This document shows, piece after piece, positions 10,679 through 49,192 of a DNA stretch of 64,000 bases. A program made the position numbers and the translations under genes. Position 1 is the stretch's first letter. Each line of letters opens with the position of its first letter. Below the pieces are notes generated by a model. It saw only the letters and a program-made list of their open reading frames with translations. It ran no database searches and was not told the origin of the DNA. The DNA is taken from positions 23,480 through 87,479 of IMG/VR virus record IMGVR_UViG_3300002038_000006. The stretch is one strand, 5' to 3'. This DNA comes from a virus.

Positions 10679-12058
10679 TTCTTCTAAATCACGTTTAATC
10701 CAGATGACTAAGGAACTGTTACAACGAACACGTTGGTCAGTAAAAACTTGAGTCTCTGTAGAGTAAGCATGAGCACAGGATATTAAAATACCCTCTAACC
10801 CTTTCACTCCATCCTTACCTGAATAAAGAACTTTAGTTGGAACACCCGGACGTAATACATCAGGGTCTGAGTTTTCCCACATTACATTAACCACTGAGCC
10901 TCTACGAACATTAAGTTCTGATAGTTGTGCAAAGTGATTTGAACTTATGCGCTGTTTAGAATAAGGAACGTAGTTAAGTTGGTCTTCTCTAGCCTCGACG
11001 ATATATTCGCGAAGATTAGCAGCCCTACTTATCTCAGTTACTCCAGCCTCAGTCTTAGCGTAAGTATCTATAAGCTTATTAGCGTCCTGATACCTAACAC
11101 CATTACCTAAGTTCTGTAAATATGCTTCAGTGTTATCTAGATGCTGTACGTTACCCGTAGCGACTACCTTAACGTGTTTCTCCTCGACAGAGAAAGAGTT
11201 GTCGGTAGCTGGTACCACATTAGTGTCTATGACAGCTATGGTAAGCGTACGTTCAGATGATTCGTAACGACTAGTATTGTGTAGTCCCCATAAATACCAT
11301 TCGCCCCTTTCGATGTAACTGCCCAAAGAAGTTTCATACAACCCGTACTTCTTCTGACAATAATCAGGGAAGTCCATCAGTCTAGTTCCCACAGGAACCA
11401 ATAACTGTTTAGGGTCTTTAGTATTATCTGTATCAACGACATCAACACCAGCTAATTCATGCTGTTGTTTTTGTTGTACTAATTCAAGGTTAACATCTTT
11501 TTCCCAAGGTTCGGTACGGAGCTTAGCTCTACAACAAGCCTTAAGGATGTTTTCCCACGTTCCTGCAAATATGCCGGAGATGAATTTTGTACGAATATTA
11601 TCGAGTAATGGTTCAACCAACTGTAACGTCACAGGAATCCGTTTAGAACGGTCACCTTTAAGTTCGTCGTTAGTAATCTCACTACTTGCCTTTAGAGCTA
11701 GACTGGTTTGGTCTACGAGGACTGCCCTGTATAGTTCTTTAGTTGCAAACTTAGTTCCATCAATAGTATCTCTAGTTCGGAGTACAATCGGTTTTCTAAG
11801 TATCTCAACTCTAAGATAGGATTTATATGGATATAGTTTCTTAACGTAACTACCCAATCCCATCTCGAAGTTAAGCATGGTCTTATCGGAGAAATCATTC
11901 GCATAATCTCTCTCGATAGTCATTGACTGAACATTGTCCAATACTAACTCACCATCAGGGGTAAAGACGGTAACCGTCCACATGAACTCAGGATGTGTAG
12001 GAGCTACCTCTGCAATCTTAACTATGTCTTCGTAGAGAGTTGAATCTCTTACTTCCAA
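10670..12058 (-). CDS. Virion structural protein (phiKZ gp101-like, neck/tail region)
   Basis: TTG start with GGAG RBS; ERDYANDFSD and VNVMWENSDPDVLRPG motifs recalled from phiKZ-like virion proteins; synteny. Confidence 0.55.
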   Translation of the reverse strand: MEVRDSTLYEDIVKIAEVAPTHPEFMWTVTVFTPDGELVLDNVQSMTIERDYANDFSDKTMLNFEMGLGSYVKKLYPYKSYLRVEILRKPIVLRTRDTIDGTKFATKELYRAVLVDQTSLALKASSEITNDELKGDRSKRIPVTLQLVEPLLDNIRTKFISGIFAGTWENILKACCRAKLRTEPWEKDVNLELVQQKQQHELAGVDVVDTDNTKDPKQLLVPVGTRLMDFPDYCQKKYGLYETSLGSYIERGEWYLWGLHNTSRYESSERTLTIAVIDTNVVPATDNSFSVEEKHVKVVATGNVQHLDNTEAYLQNLGNGVRYQDANKLIDTYAKTEAGVTEISRAANLREYIVEAREDQLNYVPYSKQRISSNHFAQLSELNVRRGSVVNVMWENSDPDVLRPGVPTKVLYSGKDGVKGLEGILISCAHAYSTETQVFTDQRVRCNSSLVIWIKRDLEEPA

Positions 12059-28403: not shown

Positions 28404-29661
28404 TTAGCTAGCTCCTAGGTTGCTAAACTTAGCCGCAGATGCAAACAAGTCATTATTTAATAACTTCTCGATAGTCTGCTGTGCTTCTTTATGTTTTAAT
28501 TCTTTACGGGTTGTAGGTGAAAGTACTTTCCACACTAACTGCAAAGAACCATTACGTTGAGTCATGGTTTCCATAACAGCTTCAATCGCTGCTAGGTCAT
28601 CCAGTAAAGACTGCTTGGTTTCTTTATCAAGCTTTTTATTCTTAAGTTGTTCAACCAAATCACGTTTGACTCGCTCAGCGCGGTCACGTGGTAAATCATA
28701 AGTAGATTCATGTGGGTTGTTAGCAACAATCAAAATAGCTATCAAAGCTGTGGCTGGGCCACCTACTGCTACGGCAGCAAAGAAACTTAAAGTCTTAATC
28801 ATTTCAAGACTATAGAAAGTAGCCGCATTACGGTATACTGGGTTTCTTTGGTAACGTTGGATTTTATCCAGAGCTGTAACTAAAGATAATCCACCGCCAT
28901 GACGAGTAGCGAATTGGTCGGATAGGAATTCAAAGCCTGTGCCGTCGTACATACTAGCACCAGTTTCAGAAACAGACTTCTGAATCTCAGCTTGTAATAG
29001 TACGGTAGCAACACCTTCTTTACTTTGCATGTTAATGATGCGTTCTTTCTCTTCGAATGTAACACCACGTAACTTAGCATACTGGTCTATAATCTCAACC
29101 TTGTTCGCTTTATAAAGCACCGACAGTGGCATTAACAGCATGGTTTAGACTAACAGTAAGTCCAAGCATTTCAAAGTAAGAGAAGATGTGTCCAACTTCA
29201 TGTAGAAGTACGGAAGCAATCTCTTCATCAGACATCTTGTTAGTGGTGAATAGATTCTCACCAAGGAAGATAGAGCAAGGTACTTTACGGAAATCACCGT
29301 GAACCTTACCGTCTTCTAGGTCAACCCAACCTTTAACAGTGTCTTGCCCTTTTGCAATTATAGATAGAGCGTCCTCGTCTCCATAATTAACATTTTTAAA
29401 CTTGCCCATCAAAGGATGGTTTTTATCAAGTTGTGGAACGTATACGTGAGCGTCCCATGGAATTTCAGTAGTATTAAGGGAAACGTTGATATGCGTCTTC
29501 TTTTCAATCAGGTCCGCGATACCTGACTTAGCTAATGTAGAACGATTAATCTTCCCTTTACGGAATTCATTAATCAAACCTGCCAAGCTCAAAAACAACA
29601 CATCGTTACGTTGTACCTTAATAGCCTCAATGCCGAGGCCGGTGGTACGCAGATTATTCAT
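28404..29661 (-). CDS. Virion protein with HExxH metallopeptidase motif (phiKZ gp84-like), split by a +1 frame break at about 29110-29118
   Basis: 5' ORF 29110-29661 has LLHEVGH; 3' ORF 28404-29141 has EFLSDQFA and YDLPRDRAER and lacks an RBS. Confidence 0.65.
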
Positions 29662-30005: not shown

Positions 30006-31778
30006 ATGAGCAACTTACCAAAAGGTGTTAAAGGATACGAGTGTAAGCACGCTATGTATACTGAGGCCACCGATAAGTCTAAAGACGATTTAGTATTAGT
30101 TAAACGCAACGTCTTTATGGAAGACGGCTCTATCGTTCCTGAAGTTAACTTTGTTGAAAACTATGAGCGTGAGTTCTGGGTAGTTAATGAAGCGCACCGT
30201 ACCTACGAAGAAAAGAAAGCGTGGGAAGATGAATTCAAGTGTCGTAAGTACAAGACACGTCAGAGTTACCTAACTGATAAAGTAACTCGTGCATTAGGAC
30301 GTAACCCAAGTGGTTGGGTAAGTAAATCAATCTTGTTCCGTAACCAATACGTTTACGGTGCAGACATTACAACTAGCGCATTAATCAAACGTGCGTACAT
30401 GGAAAGATTTGAAGAATGTACTTCTGAGTCAACCATGGGTGTAATGGATATTGAGACCGACGTTGTAACAGGCGACGGTAGTGAAATCATCTCAGCTTCA
30501 TTCACTTACAAAGATAACATCTATCTAGCATACACTGAAAAGTTTGTAGGTAAGGTAAATGATTACAAGCGTAAGTTGCAAGAGAAGTACGAGTTCTACA
30601 TTGGTGGGATTGCAGACGACCTAGCCGAACAAATGAAAGACCCTAAGGTTGGTAAGAAGCGTAGACAAATCTTAGAGCGTGCAGAGAAAACACTCCGTGC
30701 TCGTTCTCAAGTAGAAATCCATACTGAATTAGTATCTAGTCCAGCACAGGTTACTAACTTCGTATTCCAAGCAGCACATAAACACAAACCAGACTTCATT
30801 GCCTTCTGGAACATGAACTTCGATTTACCAAAAATGATTGCCTCTTTAGAAGCAGCAGGTATTGACCCGAAACATGTGTTCTGTGAACCTACTCTCCCTG
30901 AACGTTACAAGCGATTCAATTACAGAGCAGGACAGGCTATTAAACAGATAGCTGGCGGTAGAACAATGTCAAAGCACCCTGCCGATTTATGGCACGTTGT
31001 AGACGCTCCTGCTTCGTTCTACTTGATTGATGCGATGTGTGTATTTAAGCAGATTCGTGTAACTGAGGGTAACCGTAATAGCTATGGTCTAGATGCTATC
31101 CTTACAGACGAGTTAAACCTAGGTAAGTTAAAGTTCTCAGAAGCCGACCATCTAACTGGTTTAGACTGGCACGTATTCATGCAGACCAACTACAAACTAG
31201 AATACCTCATCTATAACATCTTTGACTGTATGTCAATTGAAATACTTGACGACAAAAATAAAGATATGGCGTTAACGGTTCCGACCCTGTGTCAGCATTC
31301 TGATTACGCTAAGTTCCCAAGTACACCAAGACGTCTGTGTGATGACATGCACTTCTACTTGAAACAACACAAGAAAGTTATATCTACTACTTCCGACGAT
31401 ATGTCAGAAGAGATGGATAAGCACGTGGTTGGCTCTAGAGACTGGATTGTTACATTACCTAGTCACTTGGTTGCAGAGAACGGTTTACAACTATTAGAAG
31501 AAGCCCCACACGTTCACTCAATGCTCCGTGTACACGTTGCCGATTTAGATGTTGCCTCAAGTTATCCTAACACAGGTTCGTTCATGAACATGAGTATGGA
31601 AACTACAGCACGTGAGTTGGTTGGTGTAGATGGTGTTGATGAGTACGACAAACGTATGTCAGGATTAAACCTAACAGCAGCACGTACAAATGCAGTGGAA
31701 TGTTCTGGTACATTCTTTAACTTCCCTACTATGGATTCATTACTTACCGAATTCCGTAGAAAGAAAGATGCGGCATAA
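30006..31778 (+). CDS. Family-B DNA polymerase fragment: 3'-5' exonuclease plus motif A (phiKZ gp82-like)
   Basis: ExoI MDIETD, ExoII WNMNFD, ExoIII YNIFDC, pol motif A DLDVASSYPN; no motif B/C. Confidence 0.85.
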   Translation: MSNLPKGVKGYECKHAMYTEATDKSKDDLVLVKRNVFMEDGSIVPEVNFVENYEREFWVVNEAHRTYEEKKAWEDEFKCRKYKTRQSYLTDKVTRALGRNPSGWVSKSILFRNQYVYGADITTSALIKRAYMERFEECTSESTMGVMDIETDVVTGDGSEIISASFTYKDNIYLAYTEKFVGKVNDYKRKLQEKYEFYIGGIADDLAEQMKDPKVGKKRRQILERAEKTLRARSQVEIHTELVSSPAQVTNFVFQAAHKHKPDFIAFWNMNFDLPKMIASLEAAGIDPKHVFCEPTLPERYKRFNYRAGQAIKQIAGGRTMSKHPADLWHVVDAPASFYLIDAMCVFKQIRVTEGNRNSYGLDAILTDELNLGKLKFSEADHLTGLDWHVFMQTNYKLEYLIYNIFDCMSIEILDDKNKDMALTVPTLCQHSDYAKFPSTPRRLCDDMHFYLKQHKKVISTTSDDMSEEMDKHVVGSRDWIVTLPSHLVAENGLQLLEEAPHVHSMLRVHVADLDVASSYPNTGSFMNMSMETTARELVGVDGVDEYDKRMSGLNLTAARTNAVECSGTFFNFPTMDSLLTEFRRKKDAA

Positions 31779-31820
31779 AGCAAAAAAAAATAGGAGAGCG
31801 CAATGCTCTCCTTTATGCCG
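31771..31820. terminator. Bidirectional hairpin with motif on both sides
   Basis: CGGCATAAA...AGGAGAGC/GCTCTCCT-TTATGCCG. Confidence 0.7.
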
Positions 31821-31823
31821 GTA

Positions 31824-32297
31824 TTACCAGCCACCACCACCCTTAGAATTAAGCATATCCCTCACTTCAGTAAGCTTTTCAGGAGTTACATCGCATTGTA
31901 TTCTGAAGTCAGATATCAGCAGGGTAACACTTTCTATGTCGCCCCCACCATTGGATGCTTCCAGTAATACTCTTAACTTATTAAATAAAGATATCAACTC
32001 CTGTCTATTAAGGACATTAATACTATCCATATCGGATGCTCTAAGCGCCCTTATCTTTTTAGTCGACATCCCCAACTTAAGCCCATACGTTTTAACCATC
32101 TCTTTTACTTCACGTAAAGAAGCCCTGCCGAACCCGGGTAAACGTAAAAGGTCAACTTCAGTTGACAGGAGCACATCTTCAAGAGTAACTAATTTCCCGA
32201 AAAGGCAACTATTGCTTACCTTAGTAGACAATAAGTCTTCCAACTTTGTTGCAACAGTTACTTCTTTAGGTAACGATACTTTATATATTTTCTGCAT
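31824..32297 (-). CDS. Stand-alone RNAP alpha-CTD-like domain protein
   Basis: STEVDLLRLPGFGRASLREVKEMVKTYGLKLGM aligns ungapped to alpha-CTD [33 protein letters not shown]. Confidence 0.8.
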   Translation of the reverse strand: MQKIYKVSLPKEVTVATKLEDLLSTKVSNSCLFGKLVTLEDVLLSTEVDLLRLPGFGRASLREVKEMVKTYGLKLGMSTKKIRALRASDMDSINVLNRQELISLFNKLRVLLEASNGGGDIESVTLLISDFRIQCDVTPEKLTEVRDMLNSKGGGGW

Positions 32298-32357
32298 TAT
32301 CTTTTTCCTTTTATTTAAACGACATAGGTAGGGACTTTCGCCCCATCCTATTATTTA

Positions 32358-32728: not shown

Positions 32729-33691
32729 TTAAATTACCAGTAGTTGACCTACCTTGATTAGATGAGGTTCAGCTAGACCGTTCTTCTTAGCCAGTTCCTG
32801 CATAGGCATTTCCAATCGGCGTGCTATTGAATATAACGTATCACCATTGGTAACAAGATACATGTTACTACCTACGTGTAAGAACTTACCATATTTAAGG
32901 TTGGTGGTATATTTACCCTCACCCAGCTTAGTAATCTTAAGTCCGTTGACAGACATGAATATCTTAGGATGCATATCGTGTTTAGCAGCGATACCTTTAA
33001 TAGTATCTCCCGGCTGTACGTAATACTTGGTTCCCTCATAGAATCCCATAATGTCTGCAACATATTCTCTAGTCTCACGGAAGTTAGGAGGAAGGTAACC
33101 GTTACCAACCTTTCGTATCCTTGCAGGACCAGCATTGTAAGCAGCTAATGAAATCTTTAATGTGTACTCTGTGAATTCACTCAAAGGAGTATTAAAGAAA
33201 CGACGATGTAAATGGTCTAGATATCTAGCAGCCGCATCAGCAGACTCGTAGTTATCCATGACGTTCATAACACCTAACATAGCAGCTGTACGGTCACGTA
33301 TTTGAAACATACCCTTAGCGCCCACTACAGACTCTTGTGTATTGTCCTGATGAGATTCCTTAAGACTCATCCCTTGTAATATCTTTCCCGGTAAACCATG
33401 CGGGAATCCAATAACATCTAATTCTTCTAACGTAGGTATGTCGTTAGGGTATCGATTAAATGTCCTTGCCGTTATAGGTAATATCTCCACTACCTCAGGC
33501 TCTATAACTTCCACCACTTCTACTTCTTCCTCTACTACAGGAACAGGTACAGGCAGTGGTGCTGGTAACTCAGTAGGTGTTACTTTAACAGTTTCTGATT
33601 TGTGGAAATAATCAAAAACCATCCATGTCGTCATAATTACGATTATCATGGTAGTAACAAATGAGTACCTTGTTAAGTTCTTCTTTAGCAT
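32729..33691 (-). CDS. Membrane-anchored lytic transglycosylase (SLT) with two LysM domains
   Basis: N-terminal TM, P/E/V linker, catalytic LKES, GAKGMFQI, AAYNAGP, ETREYV; LysM YYVQPGDTIKGIA and YLVTNGDTLYSIA. Confidence 0.9.
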   Translation of the reverse strand: MLKKNLTRYSFVTTMIIVIMTTWMVFDYFHKSETVKVTPTELPAPLPVPVPVVEEEVEVVEVIEPEVVEILPITARTFNRYPNDIPTLEELDVIGFPHGLPGKILQGMSLKESHQDNTQESVVGAKGMFQIRDRTAAMLGVMNVMDNYESADAAARYLDHLHRRFFNTPLSEFTEYTLKISLAAYNAGPARIRKVGNGYLPPNFRETREYVADIMGFYEGTKYYVQPGDTIKGIAAKHDMHPKIFMSVNGLKITKLGEGKYTTNLKYGKFLHVGSNMYLVTNGDTLYSIARRLEMPMQELAKKNGLAEPHLIKVGQLLVI

Positions 33692-33959: not shown

Positions 33960-34020
33960 TACGATTTCCTTTTATTTAATCGTTAAAGTTAATAGGGTAG
34001 TGACGCATAATGGTTACTTC

Positions 34021-34042
34021 ACTATAGTAATATGTATCTATC
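34021..34042 (-). promoter_or_regulatory. Early-type promoter for 33959-31824 cassette
   Basis: TAGATACATATTACTATAGT. Confidence 0.6.
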
Positions 34043-34611: not shown

Positions 34612-34637
34612 TTACACTAAGATAATATGTATCTGTT
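34612..34637 (-). promoter_or_regulatory. Early-type promoter
   Basis: ACAGATACATATTATCTTAGTGTA. Confidence 0.65.
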
Positions 34638-34659
34638 ATTAATTTATTTAGAGGCTGAC

Positions 34660-34806
34660 ATGAAGAAGACATTAAAGGGTTTACTGGCGTTAGCCGTTGC
34701 TTTACTTATAACCATCTGTGGTAGCGCTATGCTTGCCGATGACCAAAGACCTAAGAACATGATAGATAAATGGTCAGATGGTGAACCACACCTTAGACAT
34801 GTATGA
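34660..34806 (+). CDS. 48-aa signal-peptide/membrane microprotein (absent from ORF track)
   Basis: AGAGG RBS; MKKTLKGLLALAVALLITICGSAMLADDQRPK...; bidirectional terminator directly follows. Confidence 0.65.
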   Translation: MKKTLKGLLALAVALLITICGSAMLADDQRPKNMIDKWSDGEPHLRHV

Positions 34807-41436: not shown

Positions 41437-41460
41437 GCACTAGAATAATATGTGTCTAGC
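41437..41460 (-). promoter_or_regulatory. Early-type promoter for Dam-like gene
   Basis: CTAGACACATATTATTCTAGTGC. Confidence 0.6.
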
Positions 41461-44960: not shown

Positions 44961-46934
44961 TTACCCCGCTAGAATATTATCGAAGTTGTGGTCAGGTACG
45001 TTAGTCTCGGTAAATGAAGATGCTCTAAGTATAACATCACCATGACGTTCAAATGCCATCGCCGCAGACATACTACGGTTAAACATATTTTCACGATGGA
45101 TGTTAAAGGTTTCTTCTTCTTGCCCAACAGGTGGACAATTACTATTCGCACGAACAGATGAAGTAACCATAGAGGATAGTAACAATACTTCTAGATGTAA
45201 TACATTTACATTAGCTCTGCTATTTACTATATCGTAAAGTTTACGCAATGCTTCTGCTGATGTCTTACAACCATACACACCGTTTCTACTCTTCTTCTCA
45301 ATAAACTCAGAAATGCTTTGCATGTACTCAAGCATGTTCATGTGTCTTTGAGGCATTACCAAGAATGGCTTACTAAACGTCCAATGACTAAGGTCAATAA
45401 CGTAGTCGCCATAGTTATCTACTTCCCAACCGTACTTCTTCAAGTACTCTAGAAAATCATAAGTAAAGCTAGCAAGACGTGGACCTACTGATGTAGGGAT
45501 GATGTTATCCACTTCTTCCGGTACGTTTTTACTGTTAGGCATAGTTCGTCTAATAACGATTTCAGCCATTGCAGCAAGTGTTGTAGTCGGAAGTATTTTA
45601 ACATCAGTAACATTACTATTATTGATGTCTTCCAGATACTTAACGTACTGTTCTGGAATTACTAACTTAGGCTTCTGGTCTCTAAGCGTCATGTGGAACT
45701 GAATCTTCGACTGGTCACCACCATTCAACTTAATGAACTCAGCGTCTCTAGCTTCTATATTCAAATGTTCCGCAACTGAAGAACCATCTTCATGTTTAGT
45801 AGACATTACCTTTTGCGTTACGAATGAACACAATGCTATTGCACAGATATGACCTAAACGAGTTGCTTGGCGGTAATACATATCGCTAGGAATCGAATTA
45901 CTCAATGACCCAGCACATGTTTCACACACGTTATATTCATGACGATGATTACATGCCATCGGAGAACGTAAACGAATTAACTTACCCTCCAAATGTTTAG
46001 ACTCAGGAGTAATTTCTTCGAGTGTACCATTATCCAATACATGCATCTTACCATTGAGATTGCCAAGTGATTTCTTGGTTACCATAAACTCTACAGTTTC
46101 GGTAGTACCACAATCACCCGGAACCAAAGCTTTCACGTATTGATTCTGTAAAGAAATCTTACGACCGAAATACTCAGTCTTACGTAAAGGTTCAGTTGTT
46201 GCCTTCAATGCCTTAGTACCTGAACGACTTTCTTGTGCCGAATCAGCTAACACTTTCAAACCTTCAATGAAACCACGTAGTAATGGCTTACGGAAGATGT
46301 TTGAATCGTAATCGGTAATGAACCCACGAATAAATGCTTGTAACACTTGTCCGATAGAAATCAATGAAGCACGACACGCATTTGTAATCGCATTTGCATT
46401 TAGGGTAGGACACGTCATTACCACATCAGTGATTTGACGATAAGCCTGTTCAATACCAGCGGTACTCGGACGAACTTCTGCAATCGCTTCAGCAACTACA
46501 GGATGCTCGAATATTTCCAAGTAATCCATTACGGATATTGTTGTTACGTATTCTTCTAACTCTTCACCGGTGAATACGAAAACATTGTTAAAGATAATCA
46601 TTGCCATACGGTTGAGTAAATCCATATCGCGTGATATACCTTTGTCGAAACATTCCCACAGGGGACGTGAGATTAGTTTCTTGTGTATGCTATTACCAAA
46701 TGTAACGTTACCAATATGGTGATGTGGTAGTAACGGTAGGTCTGGGAAAGCACGGTGATAATCCCAGTAGATAGTAGATACAATAGTCTTACGACCATTT
46801 AGAGTTAATACAGTACCATCATCGAACTCAATTTGCATTGTTAATACATTATCGTATCGTTCGATTAATTCTTCAGGGCTGAGAGACAATAAGTCTCTCG
46901 CCTTTATTACGCCATCAAGATGAACTGGTTGCAT
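44961..46934 (-). CDS. Non-virion RNAP beta' C-terminal subunit (phiKZ gp74-like)
   Basis: SAQESRSGTKAL, GDCGT, LRSPMAC....VCETCAG, VMSTKH, RSMSAAMAFE. Confidence 0.88.
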   Translation of the reverse strand: MQPVHLDGVIKARDLLSLSPEELIERYDNVLTMQIEFDDGTVLTLNGRKTIVSTIYWDYHRAFPDLPLLPHHHIGNVTFGNSIHKKLISRPLWECFDKGISRDMDLLNRMAMIIFNNVFVFTGEELEEYVTTISVMDYLEIFEHPVVAEAIAEVRPSTAGIEQAYRQITDVVMTCPTLNANAITNACRASLISIGQVLQAFIRGFITDYDSNIFRKPLLRGFIEGLKVLADSAQESRSGTKALKATTEPLRKTEYFGRKISLQNQYVKALVPGDCGTTETVEFMVTKKSLGNLNGKMHVLDNGTLEEITPESKHLEGKLIRLRSPMACNHRHEYNVCETCAGSLSNSIPSDMYYRQATRLGHICAIALCSFVTQKVMSTKHEDGSSVAEHLNIEARDAEFIKLNGGDQSKIQFHMTLRDQKPKLVIPEQYVKYLEDINNSNVTDVKILPTTTLAAMAEIVIRRTMPNSKNVPEEVDNIIPTSVGPRLASFTYDFLEYLKKYGWEVDNYGDYVIDLSHWTFSKPFLVMPQRHMNMLEYMQSISEFIEKKSRNGVYGCKTSAEALRKLYDIVNSRANVNVLHLEVLLLSSMVTSSVRANSNCPPVGQEEETFNIHRENMFNRSMSAAMAFERHGDVILRASSFTETNVPDHNFDNILAG

Positions 46935-46964
46935 TTTTGAATAGTTCCTTTTAGTTTATTCAGG

Positions 46965-49139
46965 TTATTTGTTAGGGTTATGTTTACTGTGTCGGAATTC
47001 CACACCACCACACATTAACAAATGCTTCATTAATTGTAATGGACGTGAATTGCCACGAGGTATCTTCTTACGGTTAACTACACAATCGATGTCAGTTGGT
47101 TTATCCGCCGTCATGATTGAATGGTTAATTTCTTCTGATGAATATAACGAGTTAGTTCTATCCAATAGTTCCGCAACTGTATCTGGGTCCATGACCGCAG
47201 ACATTAATCGTACCTCAGACTCACCTGCAAAACGCACAGGAGATTCACGATATGGATTCAAGTATTTATCCGCCCTACCTAACTGAACAACGATACCGTG
47301 ATGTTGACGCTTAGCAATAGATGTAGTAGACCAATCTTCACCAGTCTTATCCAATAACATCATGTACTTCGTATCAATCGCAACAGGTTTCTTGGTAGTA
47401 ATCATCTTACCACTATTACCACGATAGGTAACAGGACCAACAATGCTAGGACAATTTGCTTCAATGTCTTTCACTTGTTGGATACCAACGTTAGGACTGT
47501 TTGGAGGTAACATTAATGTTAATGCTTCTTGGTCCGACAACTTAGGATTCATAATAGCCTTGACGTGATTGTCCTGCTTTGATTTATCCGTAAGATGTTT
47601 TAAACAATACCAATACATGTAAGGTGATGCTGCTTTATAATAGGCCATGGCAATTTGAAAACCATCTTCTAAATTAGCTGCACTACGAACACGTCTAACA
47701 CATTGTGTGCTTGCTTGGTTTGTCCATTGTTCAAATATCTGACCAACATTAGAACGTTTGATTACCGATAGTGGGTCTTTGATTACATCCGCTACAATAC
47801 CACATTGAGTTGTTGGCATATCAGCATCAGGTCGAATTCCTACAATTACACCTTTAGTACCGTGAGTATCCGTAATCTTATATCCGATTGTTGGAATCTT
47901 ACGATAGGCGTAGGTAATCTCAATATTGAAATCATCCAGTGGAGCTTTGTTCTTAGTGCGGACAACTCGTTCTTTAGAAGAGTCATTGAAGTTCGCTAGA
48001 GCCTCTACAACCCAAGCATGGAACTCTGGAGTAATATCAAGATTGTTGTGACGTAAACGATTGTTCTGATTATACAGCTCAATGATTTTCTTATAGAAGA
48101 TATCTTTGCTCTGTACATACTTAAGCATTTCACCATCCATTCCAGTAGGAGTAGTACGGTATCTTACATTGTGGTCAGTAAGTACTTCAACATCTACAAT
48201 AGTTGCACCCGGTTGTGCATAAATAGTTTTGTCAAATTCAATGTCAACTCTATCCGCTAACAGATTACGTGGATGTAAATCTGAGATGGTTAAATTTTCA
48301 TCAATGGTACGAAAGGCCATAACTAAGCCATCTTCGCGAATCTTCTCACCCGGACCCGGAAAAGGTTTGTATTGATTTTCATCGCCATAAAGATTCAGTG
48401 GGAATAACGCTTTACCACAAGAAGCCTGACGAGTACCTAACATCGTTGTTGCTAGTTTACGTTGGTAACTTTCACTAATTTCAAAACCATCCTCAATAAT
48501 ACCGGGAACAGTCATGTACGCTACATTAGTTTCGATTCCGTACTTGTAGTTGCCTGTTTCATCAACACAAGGTGAATCAGCAAGGATTGTACCTTTACCA
48601 ATTGTTTGTCCTTTATTCAACTTAGCAATTGCTTGTGGGTTCTGTTTGAACTTCCACCCAAGACTTGTATGTTGAAAGAAGTACTTCTCTAGTAAGATAC
48701 TACCAATTTCTTTTGTTTCGAAATCTTCGTATATAACTAATGTAGACGGGTTTTCTTTGATAGCACCTTGTGATACTTGTTTAGCGTATTTAGGGAATAC
48801 ACCAAGAATGGTTGCGTTAACTGGAATACGTTGGTTAAATGTATATTTACCAAACTCACGTTCAGTACCAGTAAGGTTACGTCGAACTGTCGCACCCTCA
48901 GTAACTAAACGTTGTTTAAGATGTGACGCTTGCATTTGTTGTCGTGATGCAGAGTTAACTGCTATCCATGGATTCAAGTTAGTAGGTGCCCCAACTAATT
49001 CGATATCTAATTCATTGATTAAACTAGCCTTACCCTCTTTATTGAGAGTCACGAATAGTTCAGATGTCGTATCCATGTAGACCGGTTCACCTTTCATATC
49101 CGTGATATGCAGGAATCGTTCAGTATCAATCATTATCAT
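46965..49139 (-). CDS. Non-virion RNAP beta C-terminal subunit (phiKZ gp71-73-like), uninterrupted
   Basis: NSASRQQMQASH, IEDGFEIS, GYKITDTHGTKG, YMMLLDK, VRFAGESEVR. Confidence 0.9.
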   Translation of the reverse strand: MIMIDTERFLHITDMKGEPVYMDTTSELFVTLNKEGKASLINELDIELVGAPTNLNPWIAVNSASRQQMQASHLKQRLVTEGATVRRNLTGTEREFGKYTFNQRIPVNATILGVFPKYAKQVSQGAIKENPSTLVIYEDFETKEIGSILLEKYFFQHTSLGWKFKQNPQAIAKLNKGQTIGKGTILADSPCVDETGNYKYGIETNVAYMTVPGIIEDGFEISESYQRKLATTMLGTRQASCGKALFPLNLYGDENQYKPFPGPGEKIREDGLVMAFRTIDENLTISDLHPRNLLADRVDIEFDKTIYAQPGATIVDVEVLTDHNVRYRTTPTGMDGEMLKYVQSKDIFYKKIIELYNQNNRLRHNNLDITPEFHAWVVEALANFNDSSKERVVRTKNKAPLDDFNIEITYAYRKIPTIGYKITDTHGTKGVIVGIRPDADMPTTQCGIVADVIKDPLSVIKRSNVGQIFEQWTNQASTQCVRRVRSAANLEDGFQIAMAYYKAASPYMYWYCLKHLTDKSKQDNHVKAIMNPKLSDQEALTLMLPPNSPNVGIQQVKDIEANCPSIVGPVTYRGNSGKMITTKKPVAIDTKYMMLLDKTGEDWSTTSIAKRQHHGIVVQLGRADKYLNPYRESPVRFAGESEVRLMSAVMDPDTVAELLDRTNSLYSSEEINHSIMTADKPTDIDCVVNRKKIPRGNSRPLQLMKHLLMCGGVEFRHSKHNPNK

Positions 49140-49167
49140 CTTTCCCTTTTATTTATTAAGATTGGAT

Positions 49168-49192
49168 TACACTTTGATAATATATGTTTCAA
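49168..49192 (-). promoter_or_regulatory. Early-type promoter for nvRNAP beta-C operon
   Basis: TTGAAACATATATTATCAAAGTGTA. Confidence 0.65.

Follow-up and report, generated by a model that had tools for sequence, protein, structure and literature searches.

Phage proteins are known to act on the alpha subunit of the host RNA polymerase, Alt and ModA of T4 ADP-ribosylating alpha at R265. Rac of phiKMV cleaves alpha (PMC7552054). Domains like the alpha C-terminal domain (alpha-CTD) also occur outside the polymerase, PglW of BREX type 2 being reported to carry one (PMC12839542), and a genome note lists an alpha-CTD ORF in an Erythrobacter phage (PMC9127768); a literature search retrieved no functional study of a phage alpha-CTD protein. 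The RNA polymerases of phiKZ-type phages have no alpha, and phiKZ infection is rifampicin resistant (PMC7598289, PMC12809450). Here we analyzed a window of 64,000 nucleotides (the whole stretch studied) from the genome of a phage of this type, in which one gene encodes a 157-aa protein with a single alpha-CTD-like domain.

Compared with the CTD of bacterial RpoA (residues ~250 to 329; PF03118; 1LB2, 3K4G, and 9ZUM), this domain shows 32 to 38% identity over ~62 residues and a model rmsd of ~1 Å, with the helix-hairpin-helix (HhH) hairpin PxFGxxS, the TExxLL helix, and the GLxLGM end all kept. The phage protein differs in that it has no alpha N-terminal domain, carries Lys for Arg265, Ala for K298, and Gly for N294, lacks E261, ends in a 78-residue orphan helical tail, and belongs to a phage that does not need the host polymerase. 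It shares with the stand-alone alpha-CTD proteins of other phages, which are annotated by homology only, the combination of one alpha-CTD-like domain with a lineage-specific extension, but none of them is related to it over the whole protein, and the Lys at position 265 sets it apart; among the phage alpha-CTDs found in this analysis, it alone sits in a chimallivirus. The non-RpoA modules (tandem, TPR, sigma-70 region 4, PglW) likewise place the domain outside the polymerase, some of them in defense islands or integrative elements, but they keep Arg265 (93%) and carry other domains, whereas the phage protein has no such partners. With T4 Alt and ModA and with phiKMV Rac it would share the presumed target process, the disabling of alpha-dependent host transcription, but these are enzymes that modify or cleave alpha, while the phage protein is a look-alike of the target without an enzymatic domain. 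As free phage alpha-CTDs are already known from automatic annotation, what is particular here is the phage's independence of the host RNA polymerase, the cassette slot, and Lys265.

Identity of the 157-aa protein and of its phage

Sequence comparison and structure modeling confirmed that the 157-aa ORF product is a true but divergent stand-alone homologue of the RNA polymerase alpha-CTD, as the preliminary description had proposed, with support from Pfam, from phmmer against PDB sequences, and from the predicted fold (Table 1). A match to PF03118 (RNA_pol_A_CTD), for which that description had called, was obtained over residues 17 to 69 with 25.1 bits, barely above the curated cutoff of 23.8 bits, and when all six frames of the 218,099-bp genome were searched with this profile, the alpha-CTD gene was the only site (24.8 bits). 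All five NCBIfam matches were to RpoA models, at their C-terminal 65 to 70 positions only. Nearly all phmmer matches in the PDB were alpha-CTDs, aligned over residues 18 to 79, with Caulobacter 9zum_A (E 2.8e-8) and E. coli (E 1.4e-6) at the top; proteobacterial CTDs scored 28 to 37 bits, and those of Firmicutes and actinobacteria (Bacillus and Mycobacterium) and of Thermus 16 to 20 bits. When residues 26 to 77 were aligned without gaps to alpha 265 to 316 of Salmonella RpoA, the CTD of which agrees with the E. coli chain, we found exactly the 18 identities in 52 positions that had been counted earlier by eye; in a shuffle control (n = 200), the best gapless score averaged 11.7 and reached at most 15.

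TABLE 1. Features of the alpha-CTD locus (window positions)
Feature	Position	Strand	Basis
CDS of the 157-aa alpha-CTD protein, stop codon included	31824..32297	-	ORF list and translation
Alpha-CTD-like helix-hairpin-helix domain, residues 17-79	32061..32249	-	PF03118, PDB phmmer, AF2, Foldseek, VIA
Orphan C-terminal region, residues 80-157: four predicted helices and GGGGW tail	31827..32060	-	Homologue searches and AF2
Upstream genes of the alpha-CTD transcription unit: 84-aa, membrane-anchored SLT-LysM transglycosylase (320 aa), 118-aa	32358..33959	-	ORFs; SLT and LysM Pfam
Bidirectional terminator hairpin, common to the alpha-CTD gene and the convergent DNA polymerase gene	31792..31812	.	8-bp stem, T-run
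Extended ribosome-binding motif TAAATAAAAGG, 9 nt before ATG	32307..32317	-	35 genome copies
GC hairpin followed by TATGTCGT, in the 60-nt spacer between the 118-aa and alpha-CTD genes	32319..32351	-	Fold -17 kcal/mol, z -1.8
Early-type promoter-like motif ATACATATTACTATAGTG, upstream of the 84-aa gene	34020..34037	-	Genome-wide motif set

No alpha N-terminal domain (PF01000, PF01193) was found in the 157-aa protein, for which Pfam gave PF03118 alone, starting at residue 17; the protein is thus no alpha subunit. PHROGs held no family for it, a homologue search with the whole protein returned only the protein itself, with no orthologue anywhere, and a pattern scan of IMG/VR found no relatives.

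Modeling of the single sequence with AlphaFold gave a pLDDT of 37 and an unusable model. With an alignment of 70 homologous domain segments, the overall pLDDT was 83.4, with residues 11 to 80 at 90 to 98, and the HhH alpha-CTD fold on which the preliminary description depended was predicted. Foldseek superposed the N-terminal domain on the E. coli and Caulobacter alpha-CTDs with an rmsd of 0.8 to 1.1 Å over 64 to 67 columns (TM by target, ≤0.90), and VIA, an independent all-against-all aligner, gave Z values of 11.5 against the B. subtilis CTD (1z3e_B) and 10.9 against that of E. coli, SAM and other generic HhH folds lying well under these values (Z 5 to 7). All clusters recovered by a shape search of the ESM Atlas were alpha-CTD bearing. 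Since the alignment given to AlphaFold was itself made of alpha-CTD homologues, the fold backs the homology but is not independent of it. Complex prediction for a homodimer gave a score of 0.02, against a mark of 0.42, which speaks neither for nor against a dimer.

The tail had been described as helical and unrelated to alpha, and this was borne out, since four helices were predicted (residues 79 to 94, 98 to 116, 121 to 135, and 139 to 153; pLDDT 66 to 83 in a region without alignment depth) and relatives were absent from all searches. Residues 80 to 157 had no domain match among the 149 best homologous proteins, no homologue beyond the protein itself in a region-restricted search, and no paralogue in the genome; feature and structure searches of the ESM Atlas with the tail returned nothing, and its structural matches in VIA were non-specifically helical (Z 5.0). 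Two proteins of the genome end in GGW after a Gly-rich stretch, namely, the alpha-CTD protein (GGGGW) and a 423-aa protein (...NRQGGW; window 50321-51592, minus strand) that is conserved in chimalliviruses as phrog_3520 and whose homology to phage proteins stops at about residue 300. These two ends may represent a common C-terminal docking tip.

The genome (218 kb) encodes chimallin, PhuZ, and split nvRNAP subunits. Searches with phiKZ proteins in phmmer identified homologues of chimallin (genome 91244-93142; E 4e-31), PhuZ (E 4e-37), and nvRNAP gp55 (E 2e-70), and the phage is therefore a nucleus-forming chimallivirus. The split beta-type RNAP subunits are encoded by ORFs at 44961-49139, 13 kb from the alpha-CTD gene, and the 724-aa one among them matches phiKZ gp71-73, an nvRNAP subunit. 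Together with the chimallin, PhuZ, and gp55 homologues, these subunits support the earlier assignment to a phiKZ-type phage with alpha-less polymerases. The DNA polymerase gene beside the alpha-CTD gene (30006-31778; phrog_3011) encodes a protein 37 to 41% identical to those of Xoo-sp14, RP12, 201phi2-1, PhiPA3, and ~300 other phiKZ-like phages. Neither PF03496 nor PF01129, both families of ADP-ribosyltransferases, was found in the genome. A search of sequencing runs for the locus matched a single DNA run, from an algae metagenome that probably is the sample of origin, and no RNA run.

Contact surfaces compared with those of RpoA

Residues were numbered after the E. coli chains and mapped by MAFFT alignment. 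We take the UP-element '265 determinant', defined by alanine scanning in E. coli, to consist of R265, N268, C269, G296, K298, S299, and E302. Among the DNA-contact positions, N268, G296, S299, and E302 are kept in the phage protein (N29, G57, S60, and E63), C269 corresponds to S30, and R265, N294, and K298 are altered to K26, G55, and A59; the substitutions named in the preliminary description (R265K, N294G, and K298A, with N268, G296, and S299 kept) are thus right under the MAFFT register. In the HMMER alignment to E. coli, residues 19 to 37 are shifted by one, which places V27 at position 265, so that R265 is absent in both registers (K26 in MAFFT, V27 in HMMER); position 269 would hold a cysteine under an alternative register. 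Among 69 non-RpoA alpha-CTD-like homologues, position 265 is Arg in 93% and Lys in none (0/69); Ala at 298 occurs in 3% and Gly at 294 in 17% of the non-RpoA homologues.

The '287 determinant' residues T285, E286, V287, E288, L289, and L290 map to T46, E47, V48, D49, L50, and L51, and at its end G315 and M316 map to G76 and M77, R317 to S78, and L318 to T79. The retention of T285, E286, V287, L289, and G315 had been taken as a sign of activator contact; the residues are indeed kept, but their retention is no evidence of such contact, since T285, E286, L289, L290, and G315 are 76 to 94% conserved in 70 non-RpoA alpha-CTD-like domains as well. V287, found in 7% of such domains, is the sole specific match. 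The fold-defining residues of the alpha-CTD are also kept in the phage protein, and by this comparison of sequences the retention of the '287 determinant' probably reflects the fold rather than activator binding, and is not diagnostic. In the '261 determinant', which concerns sigma-70 region 4, D259 is kept as D21, while E261 is deleted in the MAFFT alignment (L23 directly follows L22) and is Leu in the HMMER register; with E261 missing, this surface would be incomplete.

The same residues bear on whether the protein is a DNA-binding or regulatory HhH protein, which would bind the minor groove or AT-rich stretches of phage or host DNA without mimicking the polymerase. The HhH fold with the equivalents of N268, G296, S299, and E302 is kept, the N-terminal part of the protein is basic (pI 9.2), and relatives are fused to sigma-70 region 4 or form tandem arrays, all of which is in line with such a role. 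The equivalent of the critical Arg265, however, is a Lys, which none of the 69 homologues has, Ala and Gly replace K298 and N294, and the gene is absent from close relatives (see below), so that it is not a core regulator. We regard this reading as possible but doubtful.

Operon, expression signals, and a slot that varies among relatives

The alpha-CTD gene is the last of four same-strand genes, following those for the 84-aa protein, the SLT-LysM transglycosylase, and the 118-aa protein. Its ATG is preceded by an extended ribosome-binding site (RBS) typical of the genome, and 12 nt separate the end of the CDS from the terminator stem. The RBS, TAAATAAAAGG(A), is the commonest 11- to 12-mer of the genome, with 35 copies at ≤1 mismatch, nearly all of them on the minus strand and 6 to 12 nt before a start codon (e.g., window 33968-33978 and 49145-49155). 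The terminator is flanked by an A-run and a T-run.

Two further elements could drive transcription. Of the 34 exact TATGYCGT sites in the genome, most immediately follow a GC hairpin on its 3' side at the end of a gene, and the resulting hairpin-TATG(C/T)CGT element, which has no U-tract, is also found at window 31771-31820 and in several places directly before an RBS. The TATG contained in it is the start-site consensus of phiKZ nvRNAP late promoters (PMC12809450), and the element may both terminate and restart transcription. The motif A(C/T)A(C/T)ATATTAYnnTAGTG has ~13 intergenic copies in the genome, including one before the nvRNAP beta (gp71-73) homologue, located 40 to 80 nt upstream of start codons and often right after terminators; sites in the window include 34615-34632, 41438-41455, 49170-49187, and 53129-53146, and the neighboring 142-aa gene has the motif upstream as well. 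It fits the description of the jumbo-phage vRNAP early promoter (PMC7598289) and, by this analogy, is likely to be one. The clean intergenic set was obtained with the longer motif including TAGTG only and not with the AT-rich 11-mer GATACATATTA, which by itself was not significantly enriched in the window (6 matches, equaled in 3 of 100 shuffles). The frequent 18-mer TACTAGTAAATCAACTAC was rejected as a promoter, being a Thr/Ser-rich coding repeat; Thr/Ser-rich coding repeats of ACTAGTAAATCAACTACTACT-type units lie outside the window at either end of the record (genome 90-980 and 217184-218071) and extend across the terminal repeat. The early expression assumed in the preliminary description is not secure, since the early-type motif stands upstream of the operon, but the hairpin and TATGTCGT with its late TATG directly precede the gene. 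To judge from these motifs, the gene may be transcribed by readthrough from the early-type promoter, from a new start at its own TATG, or in both ways.

We compared the locus with four IMG/VR contigs found via their DNA polymerase (56 to 87% identity), L004 to L007. In L004, L006, and L005, all neighbors of the alpha-CTD gene, including the three upstream genes, are present in the same order; in the more distant L007, the upstream genes are absent and the whole five-gene island is missing. The slot itself is occupied by unrelated ORFs without a Pfam match, of 131 aa in L004 and L006 and of 135 aa in L005, i.e., by two distinct contents. Its layout is kept in L004 and L005 and consists of a hairpin, TATGCCGT or TATACCGT, TAAATAAAAGGA, eight bases, the start codon, and the common terminator, which is conserved in both; their hairpin stems differ in sequence from that at the alpha-CTD gene. 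DNA homology between the window and L005 stops at 31820 and restarts at 32739. None of the four records, of which two have terminal repeats and are complete, gave a significant match to PF03118. Likewise, tblastn with the alpha-CTD protein and an E. coli-type CTD against 50,697 GenBank phage records matched no phiKZ-like phage (~300 such genomes), the matches being host contamination plus Ruegeria V16, Bacillus Goe8, and uncultured gut phages. Since the slot holds unrelated genes in relatives, and since PF03118 was not found in these, nor an alpha-CTD in the phiKZ-like phages of GenBank, the alpha-CTD gene is a lineage-specific accessory cassette in a swap-prone slot. Conserved expression signals around interchangeable genes make this slot a useful place to seek accessory or anti-host genes in marine jumbo phages.

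Further features were observed around the slot. The slot genes of L004 (8832-9227, minus strand) and L005 (8886-9293, minus strand) have a W(K/T)RFKL(V/A)W..K.D.FY motif in common, near the N terminus in one and near the C terminus in the other. In the window, phrog_2767 is distributed over two overlapping minus-strand ORFs, 28404-29141 (profile positions 202 to 441, C-terminal) and 29110-29661 (positions 11 to 196, N-terminal), so that the gene is split or frameshifted, and the halves are separate adjacent matches also in L004 and L005. A 59-aa plus-strand ORF (window 34627-34806) with a signal-peptide- or lipoprotein-like N terminus (MKKTLKGLLALAVALLITICGS) sits between two units on the minus strand; L005 has a counterpart at 11590-11772.

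The distribution of the gene bears directly on a second role suggested in the preliminary description, that of a trans-acting alpha-CTD for the alpha-less phage polymerase. Such a protein might, e.g., tether the polymerase to upstream DNA or to a factor. The phage polymerases do lack alpha (PMC7598289), the nvRNAP genes lie 13 kb away, and the orphan tail could be a docking module. However, no copy was found in the close relatives, two of them complete and two partial, or in the ~300 phiKZ-like genomes of GenBank, so that a core role with the alpha-less polymerase is unlikely; moreover, the nvRNAP of phiKZ is a self-sufficient five-subunit enzyme that recognizes TATG via a beta-like subunit (PMC12809450). 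We consider this role highly improbable. A recently captured, decaying, or functionless passenger gene would be in line with a singleton for which searches found no orthologue, with a Pfam score barely over the cutoff, and with the loss of key functional residues, but the reading frame is intact, the genome-typical RBS is perfect, the G+C content (39.2%) is that of the genome, the core fold residues are kept, and the domain is modeled with confidence, which makes a passenger very unlikely.

The wider alpha-CTD family and a candidate competitor of the host domain

HMMER was run exhaustively against 1.84 billion representatives and returned 663 matches at E ≤1e-3, all via residues ~17 to 85. None of the best 150 of these was RpoA-like; they comprised tandem alpha-CTD proteins (2 to 12 copies), alpha-CTD-TPR proteins, and proteins joining alpha-CTD to sigma-70 region 4, indicating that the domain belongs to a widely reused module. 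The best per-domain scores of non-RpoA proteins were 46.6 bits (P0103), 45.8 bits (P0113), and 41.4 bits (P0076), that of the best solved RpoA CTD being 37. Because the best per-domain matches are non-RpoA proteins, the phage domain may derive from this wider pool of modules rather than from host rpoA, a choice for which ~60 residues are available.

Some of these homologues have a defense-related context. P0103 is a 203-aa protein within an integrase/Prim-Pol element, P0113 combines alpha-CTD with an MzaA-like sigma region 4, and P0076 and P0039 are encoded in phosphorothioation islands of the SspABCD/DndBCD type, with a DEAD helicase, an AAA_23 ATPase, and a dnd_assoc_4 protein as neighbors. 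P0103, P0113, P0039, and P0049 match the alpha-CTD-like stretch of the PADLOC PglW model. The phage protein itself had no match in PADLOC, including the PglW and MzaA models, at E ≤0.01, and Pfam found no kinase or sigma-70 region 4 partner domain in it. Proteins with alpha-CTD and sigma-70 region 4, either fused (823 aa) or split (183 and 466 aa), were observed at L011 (2843-15149), at L012, and on the P0039 contig, where SspABCD/DndBCD-like phosphorothioation genes adjoin them together with a DEAD/ResIII helicase, AAA_23, and dnd_assoc_4. These loci may represent an undescribed restriction or sensor module.

An anti-defense decoy would mimic or compete with the alpha-CTD-like modules of PglW or of alpha-CTD-sigma4 proteins, or sequester a host factor or toxin directed at alpha-CTD; it would suit a gene in a hypervariable accessory slot, two of whose five closest homologues examined lie in Ssp/Dnd-type islands with helicase, AAA_23, and dnd_assoc_4 genes, and PglW has an alpha-CTD-like domain (PMC12839542). 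The missing PADLOC match and the sample of only five homologue contexts argue against it. In addition, we know of no anti-defense protein that works as an alpha-CTD decoy, and chimalliviruses already shield their DNA in a nucleus. We therefore consider a decoy unlikely.

The explanation that we prefer, to which we give a probability of roughly one in three, is that the protein is a trans-acting competitor for the partners of the host alpha-CTD, and the decoy proposed in the preliminary description thus stays plausible. What we infer beyond homology, fold, context, and residue pattern is as follows. In the infected cell, the protein would act in trans, competing with the alpha-CTD of the host polymerase and occupying the partners that dock on it, i.e., class I/II activators or NusA-type factors, and possibly also AT-rich UP-like DNA, with the tail providing avidity or a second contact. 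Host promoters would thereby be uncoupled from activation, and phage transcription would be left unharmed. Lys265, K298A, and the missing E261 point to a look-alike that is non-productive and not to a functional module for promoter recruitment. With a DNA determinant that appears weakened and without the sigma-contact residue, such a competitor would engage protein partners for the most part. To poison host transcription that depends on alpha-CTD would be cheap for this phage because phage polymerases of its type have no alpha and phiKZ infection is rifampicin resistant. The accessory status of the gene and the better scores against proteobacterial than against other CTDs also count in favor of competition. 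Three points speak against it: the 'kept' surfaces are conserved across all alpha-CTD-like domains and hence are not specific, the best per-domain matches are non-RpoA proteins, and titration needs a high copy number.

A broader formulation is that the gene is an exchangeable counter-defense or host-takeover cassette, which would block PglW or alpha-CTD-sigma4 defense sensors or titrate alpha-CTD partners, thus shutting off activator-dependent host, stress, or defense transcription. Such a strategy would be open to the phage because its own polymerases do not use alpha; we nevertheless rate the formulation as improbable. Whichever partners a competitor would engage, a chimallivirus offers a clean test of a free alpha-CTD, a kind of protein that recurs in phages and mobile elements: because the phage is independent of the host RNA polymerase, an effect on alpha-CTD-dependent transcription or on alpha-CTD-bearing defense proteins would point to manipulation of the host and not to expression of phage genes.
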